Notes under the pieces: generated by a model
The model's database searches: none
What the model was told of the DNA's origin: nothing
Seen by the model: the letters and a program-made list of their open reading frames with translations, nothing else
Made by a program: the position numbers and the translations under genes
Shown: piece after piece, positions 8,947-64,000 of the stretch
Position numbering within the stretch: position 1 is the stretch's first letter
How the letters are laid out: the number at the start of each line of letters is the position of its first letter
NCBI GenBank assembly: GCA_043732185.1
Contig: JAYTHY010000046.1
Coordinates: forward strand, 64,001-128,000
Direction of reading: 5' to 3'
From: Fibrobacteria bacterium
GTDB taxonomy: Bacteria; Fibrobacterota; Fibrobacteria; UBA11236
DNA: 64,000 nucleotides

Positions 8947-9948
8947 ATGTGTTCTAAAGCAAGTTTCACTTACCGCCCAGCCCTTTTCATGGCTTTATTC
9001 CTAACCCTTGCCACTTGGCCGATGGCTGGAAGCGTCCTCGATTCAACGGCGGCTACAGTTGAGCCTGAAGCCGTTCCCCAAGAAGCGGTCAAGCTTTCTG
9101 CCCACGGAGCTTTTAGCAATCCTTCTCCCCGAGTAGGGGATTCACTAGACTATGTGCTGCAAGTGGAGTGGGAAGAATCGCAGGTGCCGGTTATGGTGTT
9201 GGCTCCAGACAGCTTAGTCTTTTCAGGTTTTAAAATTTTAGGCCAAGCCACCGTCCACAAAAAGCTGGCAAACGCCCAAGGCATTCGCAACCATACGGAA
9301 TTCGTGTATCGCCTACGTGCGCAAATCCAAGGCAGTGGCCGGATTTCATCCTTAAAGATACGGTATATCACTGGATTGTCCGGACATGAAGAAGCCCTTT
9401 TCATCCCAACAGCATTAATCGATATCGCGCAAGCCCCCGTGCACTTGATGGATATGTTGTGGTTCAAACTATTAGCAGGACTGCTTCTCTTTGGCGCCGC
9501 AGTCATGCTGGGTTGGACGGCTTTTAAAGTGACTTTGCGAACACGGAAAAAATCGGAACCGGCCAAACTGGATCTCGGCCCCAAAGTGCAAGAGTTGAAA
9601 ATCCGGTTGAAGTCCGCGGCCAGCTCACCGGAAGCTTCCAGGGACATTTTAATGGCCATGGAATCCTTGAGTATCCTTTATCTGCAACATGCACTAAAGC
9701 CCCAAGGGCCAAAGCCTCCGGGAACGGTTACACAAACCTCGCCTCAAGCTAAGTTTGAGCCGGTATTAGAAGCGTTTTTAGCGCGTACAGGAAACACCGA
9801 TAACGAGGTACAGGATTGGGGAAAACTCAGGGAACTATTCCGCCACGCGCGATTCGCGGGTGGGCATAAGGAACCGCATGAGCTTCAAGATGCGTTCAAG
9901 ACCTTCAAGAGATGTTTAAAAATAACGGGAGAAGAAGAGCATGAATAG
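8947..9948 (+). CDS. Membrane-anchored protein with one BatD-like Ig domain
   Basis: Signal peptide, Ig-like domain (VGDSLDYVLQVEW), single TM, helical tail ending ARFAG; first gene of the MoxR operon; start uncertain (8872-8989). Confidence 0.6.
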   Translation: MCSKASFTYRPALFMALFLTLATWPMAGSVLDSTAATVEPEAVPQEAVKLSAHGAFSNPSPRVGDSLDYVLQVEWEESQVPVMVLAPDSLVFSGFKILGQATVHKKLANAQGIRNHTEFVYRLRAQIQGSGRISSLKIRYITGLSGHEEALFIPTALIDIAQAPVHLMDMLWFKLLAGLLLFGAAVMLGWTAFKVTLRTRKKSEPAKLDLGPKVQELKIRLKSAASSPEASRDILMAMESLSILYLQHALKPQGPKPPGTVTQTSPQAKFEPVLEAFLARTGNTDNEVQDWGKLRELFRHARFAGGHKEPHELQDAFKTFKRCLKITGEEEHE

Positions 9949-53642: not shown

Positions 53643-55736
53643 TTAAAATGGCCGTACGTTTTTATTGATTTTGATGTTATCAAAAATTGTAGAATGCGAC
53701 ACCCAGCGCACGGTAGCGACCTCTTTAAATTGGGGTCCAAAATATAGCGTCTTTGGAATATAATCTCGATTCAGTTCAAAGGACTGTGAAACAGTGGACG
53801 AGTCTCTTTTTACCCCCACGAAAGTGAGAGAACTCTCATTCAGACGATTGAATTGGCCCACATCGATGGAAATAAGTCCGAAAAGATTGTCGTCAACGTT
53901 TAGCACTTGATTCATAATTTCATCCCTTTTAGTTAAATAATTTATGCCATCAGCTTGCCCATTGATTAGGCCCGTTGACCCATTGGAAGGGAACCCTTTA
54001 AGGCCAACAGTTCGAAATGGAGCGGCATTAAGAAAGCCTCCAGATAATAGCATGAATCCTTTTTCGTCATAATAGAAACCGTGGGAGAAAAGCTTATTGT
54101 CGGCGTGTGAAAGGGACTCGAAATCCAAATTCACGGTATCAGCGGAATCTTTTAGTCCAATGAAATTTGCCCTAAGCGCCTCTCTTTCCTTTCGAATAAT
54201 AGTGGGCATGGAAACGGAATAGCGACTGGTATCCGTGGGCTGATACATTGCATTCCTAATTTTACCCATTTCCTTTTCGTCTTTATCAATACCCAGGTGA
54301 ATGGACCAAATTGGCAGCATCCGTTCATAAGTAACCATATGGATAATTAGAGCTTCTTTATCAATGGATTGCCAACTAATTTGAGCTTGTTCCAAACCAA
54401 AATCCTGATTATTTACCCACTTGCCGGTTAATCGATCTACCAAAAGTAGGTAGGGGCGTATTTCTTTTCCATCAGGTCCAAGATTATATCCCGTACTAAA
54501 TGGTGTTTTGCGCTGCAAACGCATTTTAGGAAAGGGGTTGATACCAAATTGTATTGACGTTGGTTTATTTGGATTTAATCTACCCAGATCGAAATTACCA
54601 AGGACAATCATGTACCGACATCCCACACCCGAAATCCTAATTTCTACAAATCGTTCTGGACCGGACGCCTCGACAACGTTCATTTCAACTTGGTCCAACT
54701 GTTTCATCCAACCGTAGTCGAATGTCACAGCATCTTCAGGTCGATAAAAGCCCTTATCGGTAAATTTAGCCAAGCGAACAGGAATTTCTAATACATCAGC
54801 ATAAGTATGATATTGGTCTCGATTTAACACCAAGCCAAACCAGTCTTTGTACATCTCTTCTTCATCTAATTCGAAAAGCTCCCGTTTGGCTCGGTGGCTA
54901 AGTTCCAAAATAGATGCTTTTATTGGTCGTTTTACTTTGGTGAGACTTGAAAAAGGAATGACCTCTGCTGCGGCTAATTTCGAAAGTTCAGAGTATTTGA
55001 TATAGGGATCAAATCCTAAAGTTGGGTTTTTTATTTTTACGAGCAATCGATACAATTCGGGGCTTAATGAAAACCAACTGTGTACAAGTATTCGAAAGCG
55101 TTGCGACTGTTGCGGTGAAGCCTGCGTGGAATCAAACTTAGCATAGTATTTACTGTTTATTACGAGCTCCCACTTACCCGCGTCTAAACAATTGTTAAAA
55201 ACACCAGCCTGATAGGTTCGATTAACAGATTCAATGACATTCTTTCCGCTATTTTTGGCAAGTTTCCAGGCGAACGCGCCTTCCTTTTTGTAATAAAGAA
55301 TTCCAAACCTTTCGAATTCTTTGAGCAGAAATTCTGCGTATTTAATTCCGCTGTTTTGAGTAATGACTGGTACCAAATCAAGGAGGTCGACTGAATGAAG
55401 AATAAAGGTATTGCCAGCATCCGTCTTAAATTCCAATTCAACCAAAGCCTTGGTTGTTTCCTGGACTGGTGAAAGGAAAATGGATAGCTTGGTAAACTTA
55501 AGTCCTGCCATGGAATCTTGATATACAAGGTCTTTTTCAGCTGGGTCCTTGGCATAACTTAATACCGGAGTGTCGACAGTCAGATCAATTCGGTTCCCTG
55601 GTAGTGATTTAAAAAGACGGGTAAACTCCTCAATACCATTTTCACTCTGTGCCTTTTGAGATTTAACCCCGGTTCCTGGGCCTGAGCAGCCCAGCAAAAC
55701 CAGACAAAACAGCCAAATCCGATAATCGAAAAACAT
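53643..55736 (-). CDS. Large hypothetical lipoprotein with a C-terminal beta-sandwich domain
   Basis: ATG 55736, lipobox LLGC; AT-rich; C-terminal LDFE...FGLISID...FDNI strand pattern. Confidence 0.7.
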   Translation of the reverse strand: MFFDYRIWLFCLVLLGCSGPGTGVKSQKAQSENGIEEFTRLFKSLPGNRIDLTVDTPVLSYAKDPAEKDLVYQDSMAGLKFTKLSIFLSPVQETTKALVELEFKTDAGNTFILHSVDLLDLVPVITQNSGIKYAEFLLKEFERFGILYYKKEGAFAWKLAKNSGKNVIESVNRTYQAGVFNNCLDAGKWELVINSKYYAKFDSTQASPQQSQRFRILVHSWFSLSPELYRLLVKIKNPTLGFDPYIKYSELSKLAAAEVIPFSSLTKVKRPIKASILELSHRAKRELFELDEEEMYKDWFGLVLNRDQYHTYADVLEIPVRLAKFTDKGFYRPEDAVTFDYGWMKQLDQVEMNVVEASGPERFVEIRISGVGCRYMIVLGNFDLGRLNPNKPTSIQFGINPFPKMRLQRKTPFSTGYNLGPDGKEIRPYLLLVDRLTGKWVNNQDFGLEQAQISWQSIDKEALIIHMVTYERMLPIWSIHLGIDKDEKEMGKIRNAMYQPTDTSRYSVSMPTIIRKEREALRANFIGLKDSADTVNLDFESLSHADNKLFSHGFYYDEKGFMLLSGGFLNAAPFRTVGLKGFPSNGSTGLINGQADGINYLTKRDEIMNQVLNVDDNLFGLISIDVGQFNRLNESSLTFVGVKRDSSTVSQSFELNRDYIPKTLYFGPQFKEVATVRWVSHSTIFDNIKINKNVRPF

Positions 55737-55795
55737 ACAACTTAAGCGCTTTAATTGGTCAATTCCTATGGAACCAACCAACTGTAGGTGGCTGG

Positions 55796-56755
55796 TCACG
55801 GAAAAAAATGTAAAATGATGCTATCAGAAACGGTTACATGGCCGCGAACATCCGTGGCCCGGATCTTTAAAATCGCCGAGTCCTGCGGTGGCGCTTCGAA
55901 GGATAGATTGTATAAAGTCTGGACATTCAAATAACGACTGGAAAATTGGGTGGCCTCAGTTTTCACAACGCCATCCAAAAGCACCTCGATTAACTTTATC
56001 TCTATATCATCCGAGGCTTGAACAGTTACATTGACAGGAGCGGTAATGGCTATTCTCGTACCCGTAGCCGGACTCAGGATGCTAACCGCAGGAGCCTGAT
56101 CAGGTAAGGCATTGAACTTGTAGTCATAGCCTCCACTCGCATTTACTTCGAAGGAAAGATTGGAGAGCGCTAAATCAAAAGGATGGAATGGGCTATCGGA
56201 AAAGTTTTCGTAAACTCCGCTTCCGGTAGAAAGAGTAAAGGTAGAATCCAGGCTCAGATCCTTCGGGCCTTCCATGACGCCGGTTCCAGGGGAAAGGCCA
56301 GTCATGGTGTTATAGTTGTATCCATCGAGATGTAATTCACGGTATATAAACTCAATGCCGCCATCAGGATAAAGAACTACTCGGTAGGTCAATTTTATCC
56401 CTGTTGAGGAGCTTTTTGCGTTCAACATGGAGTTGACCCCATACGGAACGTTTCCATCACTGCCGAAGGTTAAATTGCCGCTATAGGTTAAGAACTCACC
56501 CCGTCGAATAAGGATGACTCCAAGCATCGTCGCTCCATCGACAATGGCAGTCATTGAATCCGAATGCTCCAAATTTCTGTGGCCATTGATTAACTTCTGC
56601 GCTGTAACGATAATCTTTCCTTCATCAGAAACAATTACGGAAACAGAAAAATTGCCTGCGACATCACTTACTCCACTTCGATTCCTAATATTTACTATGG
56701 CGCCAGAAACCCCGGTCTCGGCTTTATCCACAATTTTTCCTTGTACCAGGATCAT
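55796..56755 (-). CDS. Carboxypeptidase-regulatory/nidogen-like/Ig module, paralogous to the end of the upstream gene; probably its frameshifted continuation
   Basis: Shared LYPDGGIEF, FDL, D.AP.V.I.SP and TDVRG; no signal peptide or SD. Confidence 0.65.
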   Translation of the reverse strand: MILVQGKIVDKAETGVSGAIVNIRNRSGVSDVAGNFSVSVIVSDEGKIIVTAQKLINGHRNLEHSDSMTAIVDGATMLGVILIRRGEFLTYSGNLTFGSDGNVPYGVNSMLNAKSSSTGIKLTYRVVLYPDGGIEFIYRELHLDGYNYNTMTGLSPGTGVMEGPKDLSLDSTFTLSTGSGVYENFSDSPFHPFDLALSNLSFEVNASGGYDYKFNALPDQAPAVSILSPATGTRIAITAPVNVTVQASDDIEIKLIEVLLDGVVKTEATQFSSRYLNVQTLYNLSFEAPPQDSAILKIRATDVRGHVTVSDSIILHFFP

Positions 56756-59700
56756 GGAGGCGGGAGCAAAAGAATTGTAACCGGAGTCGATAACGATATA
56801 TTTCCGCGAACGTCGGTTGACTTCGCTTGAACTACAACTGAATCAAGTATGGGACCTATGAAAGAAAACGAGTAAGGCGGATTAGTTAGCGTTTCCGAAA
56901 TAATGCCATCGATTAGAAGTGCGACCGACTGAACGGCAATATCATCATTGGAATTGACCTGCACATTGACAGGTTTGCCCTGAACAAATTCAGTCCGGGA
57001 TAATGGAGAAACAATAGTCACCGTTGGCGCCGCATCCCGCAAATACCCATAAGTAACATCATAATTCCCAGTACCATTTACATTAAAAGTTAGGTAGGCT
57101 AATCCGAGGTCAAAACCTTTGGGTGGCCAGGATGCGTCAAAAACCTCATAAGGTCCATTCTGGTCTGTCGAAGTAAAGGGTGCCTCTGCGGTATAATCGC
57201 GCGCACCTGCATAGCTGCCGTTGCCAGAAGTCAACCCAACCATTGGGCCAGACCAAGGCTGGATTTGCGGGTAGCTGAATTCAATGCCTCCATCAGGATA
57301 TAAGGTAGCCTGAAAAGTCCGTGGCGTTGAACCAGGTCTGGGCCAGTTACTCTGCATTTTATACCAAGTAAATTGAACTCTATCCGAATATTGTTTTACA
57401 TAAACGGTACTATCAAAATTAGGCTGCAATTCATCCCAAAAAGGGGCGATGATTGGGATAGACAAGTCGCTCCAGCGACTTAACTGTTCAAAGTTTGGAG
57501 AATTAAAGGATAGGTTACCGTGATAATTCACGAAGATTCTGTTATAGGTAATGCCGTAGAATGGGAAGGTGAATCCGTTAGCGAAAATAATTTCTTCAAA
57601 TGGATTTGCGGTTAAGGCTAATGGCATTCCTATATCGGTTGAATACCCCCCAATTTGCAGCAAAATATTTCCAACATTTGTTGTTCCACTGGCAATGGCA
57701 ATAATGGAATCTGAAGTGCCTTTTTGGTACCGGGTACCCATTTTTATTTGCGCCGAGGCCACCAGCTTTTTCTGATAGATTGTAACCGAAGGAATAGAAA
57801 AATAACCATTGGCATCACTGGTATCACTAGACCTGTCTACATAAACAATTGCCCCCTCAACTGGGTCATGTGTACTCGATAGAATTCTGCCCATCACCAA
57901 GGTAGTTGGACGAGGATTAACATGAACAATCACTAAGTTGGATGTGGTCTGGTTACCAGCCAAATCAAATGCCACTGCCTTAATTGAAATTGTTCCAATA
58001 CCATCTTTGACCCTATAGGTATGTTGAAAGGGAGTATTACGAACGCTAGTTACTAAGGCGTCATTTACATAGAAGTCAACCTTGGCAACATAAATATCAT
58101 CATAAGCAGATGCGGTAATCACAAAGGAATCGCCTTCCAAAACAGCAGTGTCAGTTCTTGGAGCATAGATCTGAATAACAGGGTGCACGTTTCCCTGATC
58201 ATTTTGGAGGAGATATTGTCCTATCTGTAGTCCACCCGGTGCGGAAACGCCATTCCTTACCAAGGTTCCCACGTTCGTCATATAGGCATACCCATTGTGC
58301 AGATGAACATTGGAAGTTTGAACCTGGCCCCTCTTAAATAAAAAGGTGGAAATGATTGGTGCAGTGCGATCAAAAACGTTAAAAATTGGATTTCGAAAAG
58401 TAGAATTAGCATCCGTGGACAAGGCAAAAGATCCTTCTACGCCAATATGCCTTGCCTGATATAAAGTAGAACTTGCTCCAAGAATGATTGGAGTAGCGGG
58501 ATTGCTAATATCAATCAGGACTATGCCCCCACCACTTCCAGGAAGCAATCCATCCGCAATATATGCGGTATTCCCAATGACCTCGACATCTGAGCTATTT
58601 GAGGTTAAACCGCCCGTATAAACTTGGCCCATTACTACCGGGTTAGTGGGATCAGCAACATTTATGGTCTGAACCGGACCACGGCCGCTGGTAATAACTG
58701 CGATAGAGCCAGAAACGGCCACGCCTGTCAGACTCCCGGCAGGATAATTGATCCGACCTAATTGAACCGGATTTGCAGAGTCTACGACCGAATAAATAGA
58801 CAAACCTAAACTGTCAACAACATAAGCCTTAGTACCTGAAACAAAAAGATCAAAGTTTATTGCTGGCGTAGTCGCACTTCCAAGGATTTCCGGTAGTGAT
58901 GGATTTGAAATATCTACAATAAGCAATTGGTTTCCATCAGCGACATAGGCTCTATTATTCACCACCTTGACATCATTGGCATTTCCCGGTGTATTTATGG
59001 TTCCTACGAGTATTGGAAGGGACGGAATCGAAATATCGACTATATGTAAACCCGCTACCCCAGAAGCCACATAGGCAAAATTCCCATTCACCACCACGCT
59101 ATTCGCATATCCAGTGAGGGGTAAATAGGAAAGTAATCGAGGAGAGAAGGAGATAACATCGGCTTGAATTTGCACGGTGTGTCCACTATTGGATATGGTA
59201 ATCGTATCAAGGCCTGGCCTCACTGCAAAAGCCTGCCCAGAAACTATTCCAAAATTAATGACATTCAAATTACTCGATATATAGGTCGTGCCTTTAAGGG
59301 TACTGGTCAAATTCAAACTTGTGCCATCACTCAATATTCCGGTAACTGTTAACTGACGCGTTACATCAGCGGGTTGAATGGTATTGGTAACTAGGGTAAA
59401 GTTTCGAGGATTTACCTGCAAAGAAGTCAAGGCTAATGCAAGGTTGAAGCTTAATGGGTCGGTGGGATTACTGCTCGTCAGAATTTCCAGACCATCACGA
59501 ATGCCATCCCCATCGGTATCAGGGGACAAAGGATTAGTTATAAATCCATCCGCTCCCGCAATCAATTCTTCACTGTCCGAGATTCCATCTCCATCGGTAT
59601 CGGCATTTCGGATGGCGGTTCCGGCCTGAAACTCCTGTAAATTAGTCAAGCCATCTCCATCTAGATCTAATGCGCCATCGAGGGGATCGTTTGGATTTAA

Positions 59701-60312
59701 ACCTTGCGCGATTTCATAATCATTGGGCATGCCATCCCCATCTGCATCCGTTCCAGTGGATACGGTGATGAAAATGGTTTTGAGAATGGATTCGTATGAG
59801 GCTGTAATCAGGACTCTTCCGCTTGAAACAGCTGTAACAAGGCCATTCGAGTCGATGGTGGCTACAGAGCGGTTGGTGCTTAGGTAGGTTATGCCAGAAT
59901 CGGATCGAGTTACGTTTTTGGTAGAGCCATTGGGCATGGTAGCGATAACGGAAAGTTGGGTGGTGGCGCCGATGGCACTGAGGACGGGGTTTGCGGTTGA
60001 GAGAGTGATATTGGTGGGGACGCGAATTTCAGGCTTGAATTTTATGGAGTCGCTGCCATTGCCTACATTCGCAAGTACTGAAATTATGGAAGATTCACCA
60101 TAGCGTGTCCCAGTGGAGTCTTTGCAGGTGGCCCTAACTCGTGCGCGGCTAACGCCTGCAGGCACATTGAATATTTGATACGAGCCATCGCTCTGTACCT
60201 TGGCAGTTCGATTCAAGATGGAAACCACGCAATTGGTATCCAGTTGCTGGGCATTGAGGAGTGCCGCCGTATACCTAAGCGCGATGATTAAGATTAATAT
60301 CAATTTATTCAC
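56752..60312 (-). CDS. Giant secreted protein: Big_2, Ca-binding DxDGDG repeats, LVIVD propeller, Ig, carboxypeptidase-regulatory and nidogen-like domains
   Basis: Signal peptide; VATIDSNGLVTAVSSG; four DxDGDG units (~59460-59755); LHIVDIS/LLIVDIS/IVLIDIS repeats (~58270-59110); FTFPFYG..IIAPFW. Confidence 0.85.
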   Translation of the reverse strand: MNKLILILIIALRYTAALLNAQQLDTNCVVSILNRTAKVQSDGSYQIFNVPAGVSRARVRATCKDSTGTRYGESSIISVLANVGNGSDSIKFKPEIRVPTNITLSTANPVLSAIGATTQLSVIATMPNGSTKNVTRSDSGITYLSTNRSVATIDSNGLVTAVSSGRVLITASYESILKTIFITVSTGTDADGDGMPNDYEIAQGLNPNDPLDGALDLDGDGLTNLQEFQAGTAIRNADTDGDGISDSEELIAGADGFITNPLSPDTDGDGIRDGLEILTSSNPTDPLSFNLALALTSLQVNPRNFTLVTNTIQPADVTRQLTVTGILSDGTSLNLTSTLKGTTYISSNLNVINFGIVSGQAFAVRPGLDTITISNSGHTVQIQADVISFSPRLLSYLPLTGYANSVVVNGNFAYVASGVAGLHIVDISIPSLPILVGTINTPGNANDVKVVNNRAYVADGNQLLIVDISNPSLPEILGSATTPAINFDLFVSGTKAYVVDSLGLSIYSVVDSANPVQLGRINYPAGSLTGVAVSGSIAVITSGRGPVQTINVADPTNPVVMGQVYTGGLTSNSSDVEVIGNTAYIADGLLPGSGGGIVLIDISNPATPIILGASSTLYQARHIGVEGSFALSTDANSTFRNPIFNVFDRTAPIISTFLFKRGQVQTSNVHLHNGYAYMTNVGTLVRNGVSAPGGLQIGQYLLQNDQGNVHPVIQIYAPRTDTAVLEGDSFVITASAYDDIYVAKVDFYVNDALVTSVRNTPFQHTYRVKDGIGTISIKAVAFDLAGNQTTSNLVIVHVNPRPTTLVMGRILSSTHDPVEGAIVYVDRSSDTSDANGYFSIPSVTIYQKKLVASAQIKMGTRYQKGTSDSIIAIASGTTNVGNILLQIGGYSTDIGMPLALTANPFEEIIFANGFTFPFYGITYNRIFVNYHGNLSFNSPNFEQLSRWSDLSIPIIAPFWDELQPNFDSTVYVKQYSDRVQFTWYKMQSNWPRPGSTPRTFQATLYPDGGIEFSYPQIQPWSGPMVGLTSGNGSYAGARDYTAEAPFTSTDQNGPYEVFDASWPPKGFDLGLAYLTFNVNGTGNYDVTYGYLRDAAPTVTIVSPLSRTEFVQGKPVNVQVNSNDDIAVQSVALLIDGIISETLTNPPYSFSFIGPILDSVVVQAKSTDVRGNISLSTPVTILLLPPP

Positions 60313-60322
60313 TTATACTTCC

Positions 60323-60376
60323 CTAATCGTCCAAATTTTGGAATTCAAAAAATGGGATCCCAAATAATTTCAACAT
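60323..60376 (-). pseudogene. Relic third copy of the 207-aa gene (MLKLFGIPFFEFQNLDD*)
   Basis: SD AAAGGAAACAAGCAG-ATG and the first 10 codons match the start of 61072..61695 (MLKLFGVPFF). Confidence 0.7.
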
Positions 60377-60411
60377 CTGCTTGTTTCCTTTGAAAAGGTG
60401 TCACAGTCTAT

Positions 60412-61035
60412 TTATTTCTTGTAAATTACTGAGGAGTCAGCATGTCGCAACATACCCTGCAGGTTTTGCATAAACCCGATGTTAAAATCACCGCCCTTCT
60501 TTTTATAAACCCCATGTGATTTCACAAAATACAGCGTCCTGAAATAGGATGGATCACCTTTAATATTTTTATAAAAAACAATAATCAAATAAGGTGTCTC
60601 AAAAACGGCCTTAATCTCAATGCTTTTCGCATCCTTCCAATAACCGAAAAAATTTTGTCTGTTTTTTCCAACCTTTAGCATGGAATCTATCCAAGGCCGG
60701 CTTGATTCATCGTGTAGCTCTAACATTTTCTCTTTTTCACCTGAAATTGCAAAAAATAAAAAATTGGAAACGGCTTCAAATGGTGTCTTTGGCGCGGCGA
60801 TCGGACTAGGCGAAATTTTTACAATATCTGAATCTGGAAATACCTGACCTAAAAAATGAACCTCTCGAATTTCCCTGGTAAAGAGACTTTCCTGTGCTGG
60901 TATTTGGTATTTCATGTACTCTTTTTTTGATTTATCAAATTTAACGATTAGGGAGTCAGGAGAATAATTTTGAAATTTAGCCGCCATAATAATCGCCGGC
61001 ATGAAAAAAAATAGATGTCCAAATAATTTCACCAT
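60412..61035 (-). CDS. Exported 207-aa protein, candidate immunity protein (copy 2)
   Basis: Signal-peptide-like N-terminus; about 70% identical to 61072..61695 (62 differences by manual count); TPFEAV..F....SGEKE NTF2-like pattern. Confidence 0.7.
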   Translation of the reverse strand: MVKLFGHLFFFMPAIIMAAKFQNYSPDSLIVKFDKSKKEYMKYQIPAQESLFTREIREVHFLGQVFPDSDIVKISPSPIAAPKTPFEAVSNFLFFAISGEKEKMLELHDESSRPWIDSMLKVGKNRQNFFGYWKDAKSIEIKAVFETPYLIIVFYKNIKGDPSYFRTLYFVKSHGVYKKKGGDFNIGFMQNLQGMLRHADSSVIYKK

Positions 61036-61071
61036 TTTCTTATTTCCTTTAAAAAAGTTGGGATAGTCAAT

Positions 61072-61695
61072 TTATTTCTTGAAAATTACAGAGGAGTCAA
61101 CATGCCGCAACATGCCCTGCAGATTTTGTATAAATCCGACAGCAAAACTACCCGATTTCTTTTTATAAATCCCATTCGACCTCACAAAAAACAGCATTCT
61201 TAGGAAGGATGGATCGCCATTGACATTTTTATAATACACTATTATCAAATCAGGTGTTTCAAAAACAGCTTTAATTTCAATACTTTTAACATCCTTCCAA
61301 GCACTGAAAAACCTTAGGCTGTCTTTCTTTTGCTGAAGCATGGAATCCACCCATGCTCGACTTGATAATTCATGGAGCGCTACCATTTTCTCTTTATCGC
61401 CAGAATTCACAACAAATAAGTAGTTGGCAACTGCTTCAAATGGCGTCCTGGGATCGGGGATTCGACTAGGAAAAATTTTAACAATATTTGAATCTGGAAA
61501 TATCTGACCTAAAAAATGCAACTCTCGAATTTCTTTGGTAAAGAGGCTTTCATTTGCTGGTATTTGGTAGGTAACATAGTCTTTTCTTGATTTATCAATT
61601 TTAAAGATCAATGAGTCTGGAGAATAATTTTGAGATTTGGCCGCCACAATAATTGCTGGAATGAAAAAAAATGGGACCCCAAATAGTTTCAACAT
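61072..61695 (-). CDS. Exported 207-aa protein, candidate immunity protein (copy 1)
   Basis: Starts 13 nt after the stop of the large upstream gene; AT-rich; paralog of 60412..61035. Confidence 0.7.
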   Translation of the reverse strand: MLKLFGVPFFFIPAIIVAAKSQNYSPDSLIFKIDKSRKDYVTYQIPANESLFTKEIRELHFLGQIFPDSNIVKIFPSRIPDPRTPFEAVANYLFVVNSGDKEKMVALHELSSRAWVDSMLQQKKDSLRFFSAWKDVKSIEIKAVFETPDLIIVYYKNVNGDPSFLRMLFFVRSNGIYKKKSGSFAVGFIQNLQGMLRHVDSSVIFKK

Positions 61696-61708
61696 TTTCT
61701 TATTTCCT

Positions 61709-64000
61709 TTAAAATAGTGGCCCTAAATCCCACGATACTGCATACGAAATTAACTCGACTTCGGTTGCCATTATAATACTGGCCGTTGCTGTAAGTGTTG
61801 GCGCTGCAATGGTAGGCAAGCTAAACTCCCAATCAGGATAACAAAGCTTTCCTTTTGCAAAAACTAGCGATAGAGCACCTTCAGTTTGCAACTTGATGAG
61901 ATCACACGTCCCAATAACGCACCCTGCAGCTTGAATAGCAACCGTTCCGCTCCCAGATATATCCCCACACACTCTGTCACTATTACACCCTGTCGTTAAG
62001 TTCCCGCTTCCAGTCCCTGTGACTTCCAAAGCAACGGAAAATGAAACTTGAATTTCTGCCCCCAAATTAGGAACGTAGTAACTGTATGAAGGAGTATTGC
62101 ATCCAGCTATTTTTCCAGAAAGCGAGCCGCCTATACCGACAACTTCCTTGTCTTCACAATTGCATGCTTGGTGACTCTTTGTACCAAAAAGACTCCATCT
62201 AATAGTTGGAGAGCAAGCCTTGGTTGCCTCAATATTTTTCAAATAGTTGTTCAATGCGTTTTTATCCCAGCCCAAACCACTTACAGTTTCAGAAAAATCT
62301 GGATTGATTATGCCAACACTGGTAGAAGCACTAGTTGTACCTGCCTTTATCGTGACGATACCTGTACCTTTTCCGCCTGCTAGAGAAGGGACGACCCCAT
62401 CGAAATTGACAGCAGGAGAAAGTTCAAATCCCGCTGGATTTGTAGTTATCTTAAATTTGGATTTCTCTAGAGCTTCACCGGCCTGAAAATATTTGCAAGT
62501 TGTAGAAACCGACGATACTCCAACACAAATACCAAAACTCGACTTTTCAGCCACTCCTCCACCGTTACAATTCCAGGTGGCCTTATTGTAGAATGTTCCT
62601 GGAGTAGTGCATGTAACATCATCAAAATGCAAATGGTTAGAATTGCCTGCAGGTTGACTCCAAGACAAGCTTCCGTTTTCTGGATTAGTCGTCGCATTAT
62701 AGCGAATTTCCTCACCCATCCCAACAATAGGATTTTCAACCGAAACATTTACTTCACATTGCGAACAAGTACCCGTCGGATTCCCCGGCCCACCGCAATG
62801 CCAGCCACCCTTCACAATCCCAAAGCCCTTATCCGAGGTCATCGTTGCCCCATCCTCGCTCACAGTTCCAGTTCCGATGCTCACATAGGTCCCTAAATCA
62901 TGATCAAAAGAATAAAAATGCGTTTGCTCCCCAGGCTTCAGTCCGTTTACATTAGGAAAAGTTATTGGCGCAGGTGGGTCAAATTTAACCTGAGGAGGCC
63001 CAATCGAAACAATAAACCTCGGCTGCATTCCCTCTCCAGGAGGCATGGGAATTTTATCGGCATGCACAGCCGTGACCGTAATGGTATGGTCATCCAGATC
63101 CGGAGGGAAGGTGGCCGACCCTGCGGGTATTTTTAAAGAAAAGCCTGGGATCTCTGAAAGTGTTATAATCTGCTCCGTCGATGCGCTCGGAACCTTACCT
63201 TCTGCATTGTTTCTAGCTACCAGATACATCGGCATCCCGATATCATTATTCTTGCCGCTGATAGCATTCACCTCAAACATCAAGGTCACCCAATCGCCGG
63301 GCTGCGTGGCCGTTGTTCCATCGACATGCAGATGCAGATTGCCTACGGGGGTGTTGGAAAGTTGATATTGCCCTGCACTATTGGTTGTAGTCTGTTGCCC
63401 ATTTTCTTCGATACGTACCGTTACGCCTTGTAGAGGCTGATTGCTATTGTCCAGGATGACACCGCTTACCTTTGTTTCTGAAGGCGGGCCTGGAATATAT
63501 CCGGAAAGCACGAAAATGGCCGGCTGACTGGGATTGCCTGCGAAGGAAGCTTCCACAAGGTTATTATCCCGTCCCTCTTGTAATCCTAAAGTGAAAGAAG
63601 CCACTGCGCGCCCATCTTCTCCCGTTATGGCGGAGTCCAAATTCTGCCCTTGGAAATGGCCGCCGCCTGTTTTGACTTTGAATTCAACCATCATGCCGGG
63701 AATTGGATTACTGGCGCTATCGGTAACAATGGCGACAAGTGGATGTGGGGCTCCGTTTCCAGCCAAGCCCCGTTGCATATCACCGGAGGCGGTCAAAATG
63801 CGTTGCGCCAATTGAGTTTTTGCATTCGCATGGAAAACGACAGCGCCAGCAAAGCCCTCGGCCACAGCTGTAACCTCATTGGCTCCAGGTCCTGCGCGCT
63901 TGCCTAGCACAAACGGAACCGATGCCAATCCATCAGCATCCGTAGTTACCCGCAATGTTCGAGCATTTCCCGTAAAAGAGCCATCCCCCACGCTAACGTG
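61709..64000 (-). CDS. Large Ig (Big_1/invasin-like), carboxypeptidase-regulatory and ZU5-like protein with Cys-rich C-terminal tip; 5'-truncated; candidate polymorphic toxin
   Basis: Frame open to 64000; TTDADGLA and ITGEDGRA Big_1-type strands; VSGVILDNSNQPLQGVTV; LKIPAGS..FDPPAPITFPN; Cys and GC switch after GGWH. Confidence 0.75.
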   Translation of the reverse strand, partial: HVSVGDGSFTGNARTLRVTTDADGLASVPFVLGKRAGPGANEVTAVAEGFAGAVVFHANAKTQLAQRILTASGDMQRGLAGNGAPHPLVAIVTDSASNPIPGMMVEFKVKTGGGHFQGQNLDSAITGEDGRAVASFTLGLQEGRDNNLVEASFAGNPSQPAIFVLSGYIPGPPSETKVSGVILDNSNQPLQGVTVRIEENGQQTTTNSAGQYQLSNTPVGNLHLHVDGTTATQPGDWVTLMFEVNAISGKNNDIGMPMYLVARNNAEGKVPSASTEQIITLSEIPGFSLKIPAGSATFPPDLDDHTITVTAVHADKIPMPPGEGMQPRFIVSIGPPQVKFDPPAPITFPNVNGLKPGEQTHFYSFDHDLGTYVSIGTGTVSEDGATMTSDKGFGIVKGGWHCGGPGNPTGTCSQCEVNVSVENPIVGMGEEIRYNATTNPENGSLSWSQPAGNSNHLHFDDVTCTTPGTFYNKATWNCNGGGVAEKSSFGICVGVSSVSTTCKYFQAGEALEKSKFKITTNPAGFELSPAVNFDGVVPSLAGGKGTGIVTIKAGTTSASTSVGIINPDFSETVSGLGWDKNALNNYLKNIEATKACSPTIRWSLFGTKSHQACNCEDKEVVGIGGSLSGKIAGCNTPSYSYYVPNLGAEIQVSFSVALEVTGTGSGNLTTGCNSDRVCGDISGSGTVAIQAAGCVIGTCDLIKLQTEGALSLVFAKGKLCYPDWEFSLPTIAAPTLTATASIIMATEVELISYAVSWDLGPLF

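Follow-up and report, generated by a model that had tools for sequence, protein, structure and literature searches.

A large stalk gene at the end of the analyzed stretch of the Fibrobacteria genome G000, together with the small exported genes and the LVIVD gene that follow it, probably constitutes a polymorphic effector/immunity system built on a scaffold of an undescribed type. The stretch (G000:C46:64001-128000; 64,000 nucleotides [nt]) is here called the window, and coordinates are window positions unless a locus is named. To judge from sequence comparisons, the genetics are of the polymorphic toxin/immunity type, i.e., the principle is known and the scaffold is new. The locus has a sharp boundary between a constant and a variable part, and the variable part is replaced by recombination. 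The minus strand carries six genes in head-to-tail order between position 53643 and the window end, with intergenic spacers of 13, 36, 99, -4, and -4 nt. The guanine-plus-cytosine (GC) content of this island is 0.36 to 0.47, with the minimum (0.36 to 0.40) over the variable tip and the small genes, compared with ~0.50 to 0.52 in the flanks, where housekeeping genes are found (XPB-type helicase, M16 peptidases, cytochrome c, ABC ATPases, LplA, and RNase III). The first-pass annotation, which was made from the window alone, had described a co-oriented, tightly packed, lower-GC gene run, and all of its parts are present in the same orientation at the positions given here (aa, amino acids; Ig, immunoglobulin; ORF, open reading frame).

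61709-64000, minus strand: stalk gene, 3' part, open at the window end
62789-63262, minus strand: ZU5/GAIN-like domain of ~160 aa (residues 1030 to 1187 of stalk protein P0001), from a fold model and an alignment of homologs
62795-62806, minus strand: GWHC motif (residues 1182 to 1185) in the last strand of the ZU5-like domain, a putative autoproteolytic or demarcation site
62756, no strand: recombination breakpoint (position 9757 of locus L002), from DNA comparison with genome G002 and with run contigs
61712-62794, minus strand: variable tip (residues 1186 to 1546) with two predicted Ig-like domains and a Cys-rich terminal beta domain
61072-61695, minus strand: 207-aa exported protein "a" (207a), separated from the tip by 13 nt, a putative cognate immunity or partner protein
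60412-61035, minus strand: 207-aa exported protein "b" (207b), paralog of 207a
60323-60376, minus strand: relic of a third 207-aa gene, an 18-codon ORF within the 99 nt that precede the LVIVD gene
56752-60312, minus strand: LVIVD/Big protein of 1186 aa (Pfam LVIVD, 107 bits)
55796-56755, minus strand: 319-aa ORF, a copy of the LVIVD C-terminal module, without a signal peptide
53643-55799, minus strand: 718-aa predicted lipoprotein (lipobox LLGC)

When the contig was extended past position 64000, as the first-pass annotation had advised, the stalk gene was seen to continue as an ORF of 1546 aa without a signal peptide (P0001; L002:8710-13350, equivalent to window positions 61709 to 66349). Its Pfam domains are, in order, Big_13, two copies of Glucodextran_B, Big_1, and CarboxypepD_reg, followed by the ZU5-like domain and the tip; no family was assigned to the last ~520 residues, after CarboxypepD_reg, with the copies of Pfam and NCBIfam that were searched. 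The Rhs/YD repeats, VgrG/PAAR, hemagglutinin repeats, and HINT domain, none of which had been visible in the part inside the window, were not found in the full-length protein either. In addition, no TPS domain, FHA repeats, CdiB, YD repeats, PAAR, or VgrG was found in the 1546-aa protein or its neighbors. Neither the tip nor the 207-aa or 718-aa genes have a further copy elsewhere in the G000 genome.

The boundary was observed directly in a comparison with G002, a genome of the same genus with a syntenic locus, in which the stalk was compared up to the end of the contig. The DNA of the two genomes is 98.4% identical from the helicase gene through the 718-aa gene and 97.6% identical over the stalk, and no DNA similarity is detectable across the stretch that encodes the tip and the small proteins. 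The identity switches some 15 codons downstream of GWHC, at L002 position 9757 (window position 62756). The stalk proteins are identical at 606 of 616 positions (98%) when compared as far as ten residues beyond GGWHC, whereas the tips share only 132 of 342 aligned positions (39%). G002 has a single gene of the 207-aa type, encoding a 208-aa protein that is identical to 207a at 66 of 207 positions (32%). An unrelated 223-aa ORF with a membrane helix occupies the position of the second 207-aa gene in G002 (L011:15505-16176) and overlaps the 208-aa gene by 50 nt.

Among 61 related genomes, the ZU5-like domain was found in six, G000 included. In G008, the stalk ends 13 residues after the domain, and the LVIVD gene follows 18 nt on, with no small gene between them. 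The proposal that the small genes vary together with the tip is thus borne out by G002, in which both are diverged, and by G008, in which a 13-aa tail is accompanied by none. In G001, another genome of the same genus, only part of the ZU5-like domain is left, with a TGA stop, beside a short ORF for the LVIVD N terminus (L014, G001:C78:3088-3287), i.e., a decayed locus.

Logan contigs of four public runs were also compared with L002:7300-13700. A contig of X3, a run from the same study as the probable source run and from another sample, covers the stalk and departs exactly at position 9757, where its free end continues with a sequence identical to the G002 allele. In X5, a run from another study, the departure is at position 9763, six bases off, and leads into a third sequence that matches no locus of this analysis. 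The 207-aa genes are present in X5 and X6 at 94 to 98% identity. No tip contigs were found in X3 or X6 and next to none in X5, which was not counted as absence of the tip.

The same division between a constant and an exchangeable part is seen in the wider family. A homolog search with residues 1030 to 1546 of P0001 yielded at least 270 proteins from 7999 scored candidates, 120 of them listed; for most, the match is confined to the first third of the query. All 120 listed homologs align to residues 1030 to 1195 at 49 to 83% identity. GWHC is present in 106 of them, the remaining 14 have an altered His or Cys, and these two residues are nearly invariant in the set as a whole. Beyond the motif, the tails of the listed homologs range from 24 to 1124 residues (median, 348). 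Clustering of the last 140 residues of 119 tails of at least 30 aa (118 homologs and P0001) gave 48 clusters, 33 of them singletons, the P0001 tip being one of the latter. The median identity of the constant domain is 67% for pairs within a tail cluster and 63% for pairs from different clusters. Of the 35 pairs with domains at least 90% identical, 20 share a tail cluster and 15 are discordant; at least 3 of these 15 involve P0057, which ends 25 to 31 residues after the motif and is possibly cut. Tail type is therefore almost independent of the lineage of the constant domain, and the first-pass view of a stalk conserved up to GGWHC and swappable thereafter holds for the listed homologs as well as for the same-genus pair.

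Pfam was run on 38 of the 120 homologs, namely, the shortest member of each larger tail cluster together with singletons. The part before the tail has the constant order Glucodextran_B, Big_1, CarboxypepD_reg, and the unnamed domain. The families recognized in the tails are scattered, and some of them are of an envelope-targeting or toxin type. They include an RHS/YD shell (143 bits), Peptidase_M15_3 (25.2 bits against a cut-off of 23.2), DUF6973 (57 bits), PKD, Big_2, and Dicty_CTDC, and there are matches just below the cut-off to PLA2G12 (32.6 versus 34 bits) and DUF922 (24.8 versus 27 bits). The RHS shell follows the motif in one distant homolog, P0036, and two listed homologs, P0007 and P0008, are nearly tail-less. 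Sequence searches of the PDB with P0059, P0079, and P0120, which represent large tail clusters, gave nothing useful. An RlpA/expansin-type double-psi barrel was considered for the tail cluster containing ...CPGCG..iDNFS... and rejected, as P0059 has no such Pfam match. The Fibrobacteria-lineage stalks (P0001, the G002 allele, P0003, P0004, P0006, P0007, and P0008) all end in Phe whatever their tail, be it the P0001-type tip, a DUF922-like tail, or a 13-aa stub ending in GLF; the terminal Phe may be a lineage-specific C-terminal signal.

The domain that precedes the boundary was modeled with AlphaFold as part of residues 1030 to 1546, using a 47-row alignment (A1); the mean predicted local distance difference test (pLDDT) score was 70.6. 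In the model, the conserved domain has pLDDT values of 80 to 90, GWHCGG forms its last strand, and a low-confidence linker follows. In a fold search against 48,161 solved chains with VIA-align, a tool whose noise level is at a Z score of ~8, most rows were filled by matches to Ig-like domains. The conserved domain (model residues 11 to 167) was matched by the ZU5 domain of ankyrin (3f59; Z, 8.4; root mean square deviation, 3.2; 122 aa), the GAIN domain of BAI3 (4dlo; Z, 8.2; 125 aligned residues), and the GAIN domain of CD97 (9mqr, Z, 8.3; 8ikj, Z, 7.9). These four members of the ZU5/GAIN superfamily cover nearly the whole domain, and such moderate matches suggest that the boundary domain has a ZU5/GAIN-like fold. 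The label "ZU5-like" used in the first-pass annotation agrees with this result (3f59, 4dlo, and 9mqr), although the relationship is not seen by sequence models: the A1 profile retrieved no ZU5 or GAIN chain among the solved chains at an E value of ≤10. Foldseek with the whole 517-residue model returned generic multi-Ig chains only, which were set aside.

In Zhang et al. 2012 (PMC3482391), ZU5, GPS/GAIN, and Nup98 are united as autopeptidases, the ZU5/GAIN cleavage site is worded as a CxH motif, and ZU5 is given as a releasing autopeptidase of polymorphic toxins located near the N terminus of RHS proteins. The domain modeled here could cleave itself at GWH|C and release the payload. It probably marks the boundary of the cassette and also processes it.

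The tip of P0001 itself is predicted to consist of two Ig-like domains (pLDDT, ~85) followed by a terminal beta domain of ~200 aa, rich in Cys and modeled as long hairpins (pLDDT, 55 to 70). There are 16 cysteines in the 362 residues counted from the motif Cys, the strands of the terminal domain are long and amphipathic, and the last residue is Phe. The G002 allele is the one relative of the tip that was found, and it keeps all eight cysteines of the terminal domain. A search with the tip only (residues 1200 to 1546) gave nothing at an E value of ≤0.01 among 8000 scored candidates of 850 to 2706 aa. When the terminal domain was folded alone from the two sequences, the mean pLDDT was 54, and the model aligned almost only with transmembrane beta-barrels (Z, 5 to 7.7), including an OmpT-type porin (Z, 7.7), TamA, BamA, FhaC, and the autotransporter barrels of NalP, EstA, and AIDA-I (Z, 6.3 to 6.5). 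This low-confidence model would fit either a membrane-inserting toxin or a self-anchor.

If the second of these applied, the C-terminal domain would be an outer membrane barrel that anchors the stalk in the producer cell, much as in autotransporters, and the 207-aa proteins would be periplasmic assembly factors. Outer membrane proteins carry a C-terminal signal ending in Phe, which the amphipathic strands and the terminal Phe of the tip resemble, and the Fibrobacteria-lineage relatives end in the same residue. The barrel matches themselves also point in this direction. However, the barrel model is poor, being based on two sequences and having no Z score of 8 or above, and the eight conserved cysteines and the strands of 15 to 28 residues are unlike those of an ordinary outer membrane protein. 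No Pfam autotransporter family was matched. Moreover, it would be surprising for an anchor to vary more than any other part of the protein, or for relatives to have soluble enzyme-like domains or nothing in its place. We regard an anchoring role as highly unlikely.

The two small exported proteins that follow the tip, 207a and 207b, have hydrophobic leaders and are identical at 145 of 207 positions (70%); neither belongs to a family in the Pfam or NCBIfam copies searched. The relic of a third gene, another element of the first-pass description, was recognized by its first ten codons, nine of which are identical to those of 207a, and by the same ribosome-binding spacer; after these codons the frame deteriorates and ends in a stop at codon 18. 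Two of the 61 relatives, G000 and G002, carry the 207-aa family, and these are the two with a P0001-type tip, the family being not found in those with other tips. It is rare also in general, with 22 matches at an E value of ≤0.001 among 1.84 billion representative proteins. The sole locus retrieved for it in the metagenome scan, L096, is a small ORF in a phage-like context with 34% identity over 76 residues and was regarded as a chance match. A complex prediction for the tip (residues 1199 to 1546) and 207a scored 0.01 against a mark of 0.32 and gave no evidence either way.

On the other side of the small genes, the constant element is the LVIVD gene. A scan with one genome per species gave 209 loci encoding the domain, of which 80 were kept, with 75 domain-bearing ORFs called by a simple ORF caller. 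The kept loci are mostly from Thermoanaerobaculia and other Acidobacteriota, with some from Planctomycetota, Nitrospirota-type, proteobacterial, and Fibrobacteria metagenome-assembled genomes; the nearest loci, L016 and L018, are from Fibrobacteria. Of the 58 loci with at least 3 kb of downstream sequence, 50 have an LVIVD homolog downstream of the stalk gene on the same strand, within 5 kb in 49 of them, and in 2 of the 8 exceptions it lies upstream of the stalk gene. The homologs are 33 to 48% identical over ~800 residues, with the alignment starting near residue 20. The LVIVD protein, proposed as a conserved partner from a single locus, thus accompanies the stalk in several phyla.

The ORFs found between the stalk and LVIVD genes vary in kind. 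A leader-like N terminus was seen in 23 of 34 first intervening ORFs by a crude test. Pfam was run on 45 of 58 intervening ORFs, omitting the five ORFs of a 7.9-kb gap in L034, short or doubtful ORFs, an orphan stalk fragment, and a duplicate. Six of the 45 have HEAT repeats above the cut-off, and four more have weak matches; one is a triple DsbA protein, and one is an IS66 transposase. Proteins with HEAT repeats are among the recognized immunity classes in PMC3482391. At L072, an orphan module is present: a 1581-aa stalk is followed by a HEAT ORF, a 593-aa fragment of a stalk 3' end, a second HEAT ORF, and the LVIVD gene. The fragment is 67% identical to the end of the full stalk, and the second HEAT ORF is 35% identical to the first. 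Orphan modules and extra immunity-like copies are thus represented in the family by this module and, in G000, by the second 207-aa gene and the relic of a third. The DsbA-type ORF (L036:12362-14251) encodes a 630-aa protein with three DsbA-like thioredoxin domains, in keeping with the many tails that are rich in Cys at their start, with CxxCxxC following the motif.

The LVIVD protein of G000 has a signal peptide followed by Big_2, TSP3 repeats, LVIVD, Big_7, CarboxypepD_reg, a weak NIDO-like match, and Big_7. The LVIVD match (PF08309) is in three stretches, and its score is far above the cut-off of 20.2 bits. Compared with G002, the first 100 residues (positions 60013 to 60312) are 74 to 78% identical and residues 101 to 650 are 96 to 100% identical. 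Because the N-terminal ~100 residues diverge and the rest is nearly identical, either the exchanged tract ends inside the LVIVD gene or the N-terminal domain of the LVIVD protein coevolves with the tip. The 319-aa ORF overlaps the LVIVD gene by 4 nt in another frame, and its product shares ~29% identity with the C-terminal ~390 aa of the LVIVD protein. It is probably a split-off remnant, since the G002 equivalent (L011:9597-15500) is fused in a single LVIVD ORF of 1967 aa that contains the C-terminal module three times; a loss of modules and a split of the LVIVD gene seem to have occurred in G000. The 718-aa protein has no Pfam or NCBIfam family, and its look-alikes in the Atlas score 0.82 or below. 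Its G002 counterpart is 98.6% identical, and no other locus was found to have it. A role as a conserved third component was accordingly rejected, and the gene is taken as a lineage-specific element at the end of the island. Elsewhere, in other lineages, the LVIVD gene is followed by a gene that encodes either a Tat-signal PAP2-superfamily protein of ~550 aa (13 loci, e.g., L035, L052, L079, L030, L071, and L082) or a di-heme peroxidase-like DHOR protein of ~540 aa (8 loci, e.g., L039, L060, L080, and L092), both being peroxidase-type enzymes.

The stalk gene of this particular genome is interrupted. Its true start is 270 nt upstream of that of P0001, at the equivalent of window position 66619, which gives 1636 codons including the signal peptide. 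The upstream in-frame ATG opens a stretch of 64 codons with a clear leader, which is closed by TAA at codon 65 (L002:13426-13428, equivalent to 66425-66427), so that the leader is split from the stalk body. The contig of the probable source run also reads TAA, whereas one contig each of X3, X5, and X6 (three studies) reads AAA (Lys). A paralogous N-terminal domain on contig C74 of the same genome aligns across the stop codon; it belongs to a different protein with its own leader (G000:C74:29916-30563; 30% identity over 222 aa). Because of the TAA where three other runs have AAA, the stalk, i.e., the toxin arm, is probably inactivated in this strain while the immunity-like genes stay intact. 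Intact small genes beside a stopped stalk would fit an immunity-only state.

These features may also mean that the whole locus is a decaying remnant without a present function in this genome, which we consider possible if somewhat doubtful. In addition to the stop codon, the relic of the third small gene, the leaderless 319-aa ORF that is part of one long ORF in G002, and the fragment with a TGA stop that is all that G001 retains are consistent with decay. However, the other frames are all long and open, the small genes are intact, and so is the core of the LVIVD protein, as its near identity to the G002 protein indicates. A remnant state would concern this strain alone and would say nothing against the nature of the system.

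A number of results weigh against an effector/immunity system. The spacing between the stalk and LVIVD genes, known for 53 pairs, is less than 350 nt in 10, 350 to 1500 nt in 31, and longer in 12. Because the 10 close pairs leave no room for an immunity gene, despite tails of 200 to 580 aa, an adjacent immunity gene is not universal. Gapped and gapless loci even occur inside the same tail cluster. When the tails and intervening ORFs of 33 stalk genes with plus-strand ORFs were compared in pairs, both were similar in 11 pairs, only the tail in 6, only the ORF in 2, and neither in 509. These counts speak for a covariation of intervening ORFs and tails, but they are indicative only because the genomes are related and the crude ORF caller sometimes took an antisense frame; the six pairs with similar tails and dissimilar ORFs weigh on the other side. 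No Pfam family was found for 30 of the 45 intervening ORFs, and most of the tails of the 38 scanned homologs have no Pfam family or recognizable toxin fold. The tip of G000 has no match in Pfam, NCBIfam, or the protein databases apart from the G002 allele, and the Atlas look-alikes of its terminal domain, all at 0.89 or below, are uninformative. The barrel-like terminal domain could mean an anchor instead of a toxin, and the stalk gene of this genome contains a nonsense codon. As for the boundary domain, the Z scores for ZU5 and GAIN barely exceed the noise level, and Pfam ZU5 has no match in the stalk protein at an E value of ≤0.01. The canonical ZU5/GAIN cleavage motif is H-[LF]-[ST]; the last strand here, G-W-H-C, is not this motif and has its His and Cys in another order than CxH, and 14 of the 120 listed homologs are without one of these residues.

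A live rival is the variable-tip surface system that the first-pass annotation gave as its other option, in which the stalk would display variable adhesins or enzymes, with exchangeable binding or degradative modules directed to polymers, surfaces, or kin recognition, the small proteins being tip chaperones or coreceptors and the LVIVD protein a structural partner. The stalk is made up of adhesin-type Ig domains, and 10 of the 53 gene pairs have no place for an immunity gene. P0007 and P0008 are nearly tail-less, and therefore the stalk and the LVIVD protein have a function of their own. A peroxidase-type gene (PAP2 or DHOR) follows the LVIVD gene in 21 loci. ZU5 is described in large surface proteins with glycohydrolase, lipase, and phosphodiesterase modules, for which matrix remodeling was proposed (PMC3482391). 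However, three features seen here are hallmarks of toxin/immunity loci rather than adhesins: orphan modules that join a tip and a small gene, small genes that are duplicated or decayed, and an exchange at one fixed motif that leaves no residual DNA similarity. The tails also include an RHS shell and an M15 peptidase, and the HEAT-type and signal-peptide-bearing small ORFs resemble known immunity proteins (PMC3482391). We thus find adhesin or enzyme display unlikely and prefer an effector/immunity system.

Such a system would have likenesses to several known ones. Like the Sec- and type II secretion-dependent polymorphic toxins of the MafB type (PMC3482391), the family combines a signal peptide as the only export element, a conserved N-terminal part, a polymorphic C terminus, a candidate immunity gene directly downstream, extra immunity-like copies, and orphan modules. 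Unlike the MafB type, it has no MafB-N domain, its Ig stalk ends in a ZU5-like domain, an LVIVD gene closes the cassette, and the immunity-like proteins have signal peptides. As in CdiA-CT/CdiI of contact-dependent inhibition (CDI) and in Rhs/YD systems, a short motif marks the swap point (VENN and PxxxxDPxGL there) and orphan modules of a C-terminal part and a small gene occur; the motif here is GWHC, however, and it is located at the end of a folded domain. A ZU5-superfamily fold in a polymorphic surface protein, with a proposed protein-cutting role, is shared with the RHS/TcdB-TcaC-type toxins (PMC3482391). In those, ZU5 is N-terminal, at the filament base, whereas the domain described here stands directly before the payload, the usual position of HINT, and is not recognized by sequence. 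The GAIN domain of adhesion G protein-coupled receptors and the FIIND (ZU5-UPA) of NLRP1 and CARD8 are alike in the fold match and in having the site in the last strand before a distinct C-terminal part. They differ in that they have the canonical H-L|T or F|S motif, which is absent here, and are eukaryotic signaling proteins. The partner protein is a clear member of the LVIVD-repeat proteins (PF08309). Adindla et al. are said to have described LVIVD-repeat proteins of the cell surface in 2004; in the literature found, there was no function for LVIVD proteins and no tie to polymorphic cassettes. No description of the system as a whole was found in the CC-licensed PubMed Central papers and bioRxiv texts searched, although the ZU5 surface proteins listed with PMC3482391 may include relatives.

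We envisage that a Sec-exported Ig-domain stalk ends in the ZU5/GAIN-like domain, whose last strand, GWHC, would be the junction between the constant scaffold and an exchangeable payload. The payload and the small exported gene or genes that follow would be replaced jointly by recombination, with the ZU5-coding DNA upstream and the LVIVD gene downstream serving as homology arms. The LVIVD protein, a predicted beta-propeller, would be the constant surface partner of the stalk, most likely in anchoring or presentation. In G000, the payload would be the disulfide-rich, all-beta tip with a terminal domain that looks membrane inserting; the two 207-aa proteins with signal peptides would be periplasmic immunity proteins, a third copy having decayed to the relic. 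The ZU5-like domain would cut itself at GWH|C and thereby free the payload. We infer an antibacterial role for the payloads, as toxins directed at the cell envelope, and a neutralization of these toxins by the small proteins. A bolder version seems distinctly improbable to us, namely, a widespread new delivery class that cuts itself at GWH|C and keeps the payload tethered until contact or force, with an obligate LVIVD partner whose N-terminal domain travels with the cassette and, as the payload, a beta-barrel pore former directed to the outer membrane of competitors and blocked by the periplasmic 207-aa proteins.

Polymorphic toxins shape bacterial competition and kin recognition. The known delivery scaffolds (CdiA, Rhs, MafB, LXG, and type VI secretion cargo) come mostly from cultured Proteobacteria and Firmicutes. 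The scaffold described here is common in Acidobacteriota (Thermoanaerobaculia and Bryobacterales) and is found also in Planctomycetota, Nitrospirota-type bacteria, and Fibrobacteria, i.e., in soil and sediment lineages in which antagonism is almost unstudied. If the proposed effector/immunity system is correct, GWHC would be a new demarcation motif for mining dozens of payload and immunity families, and a bacterial GAIN/ZU5-like domain would be located exactly at the expected release point. The LVIVD propeller proteins would gain their first functional context, and the locus would be a case in which both flanking genes serve as homology arms in cassette exchange.

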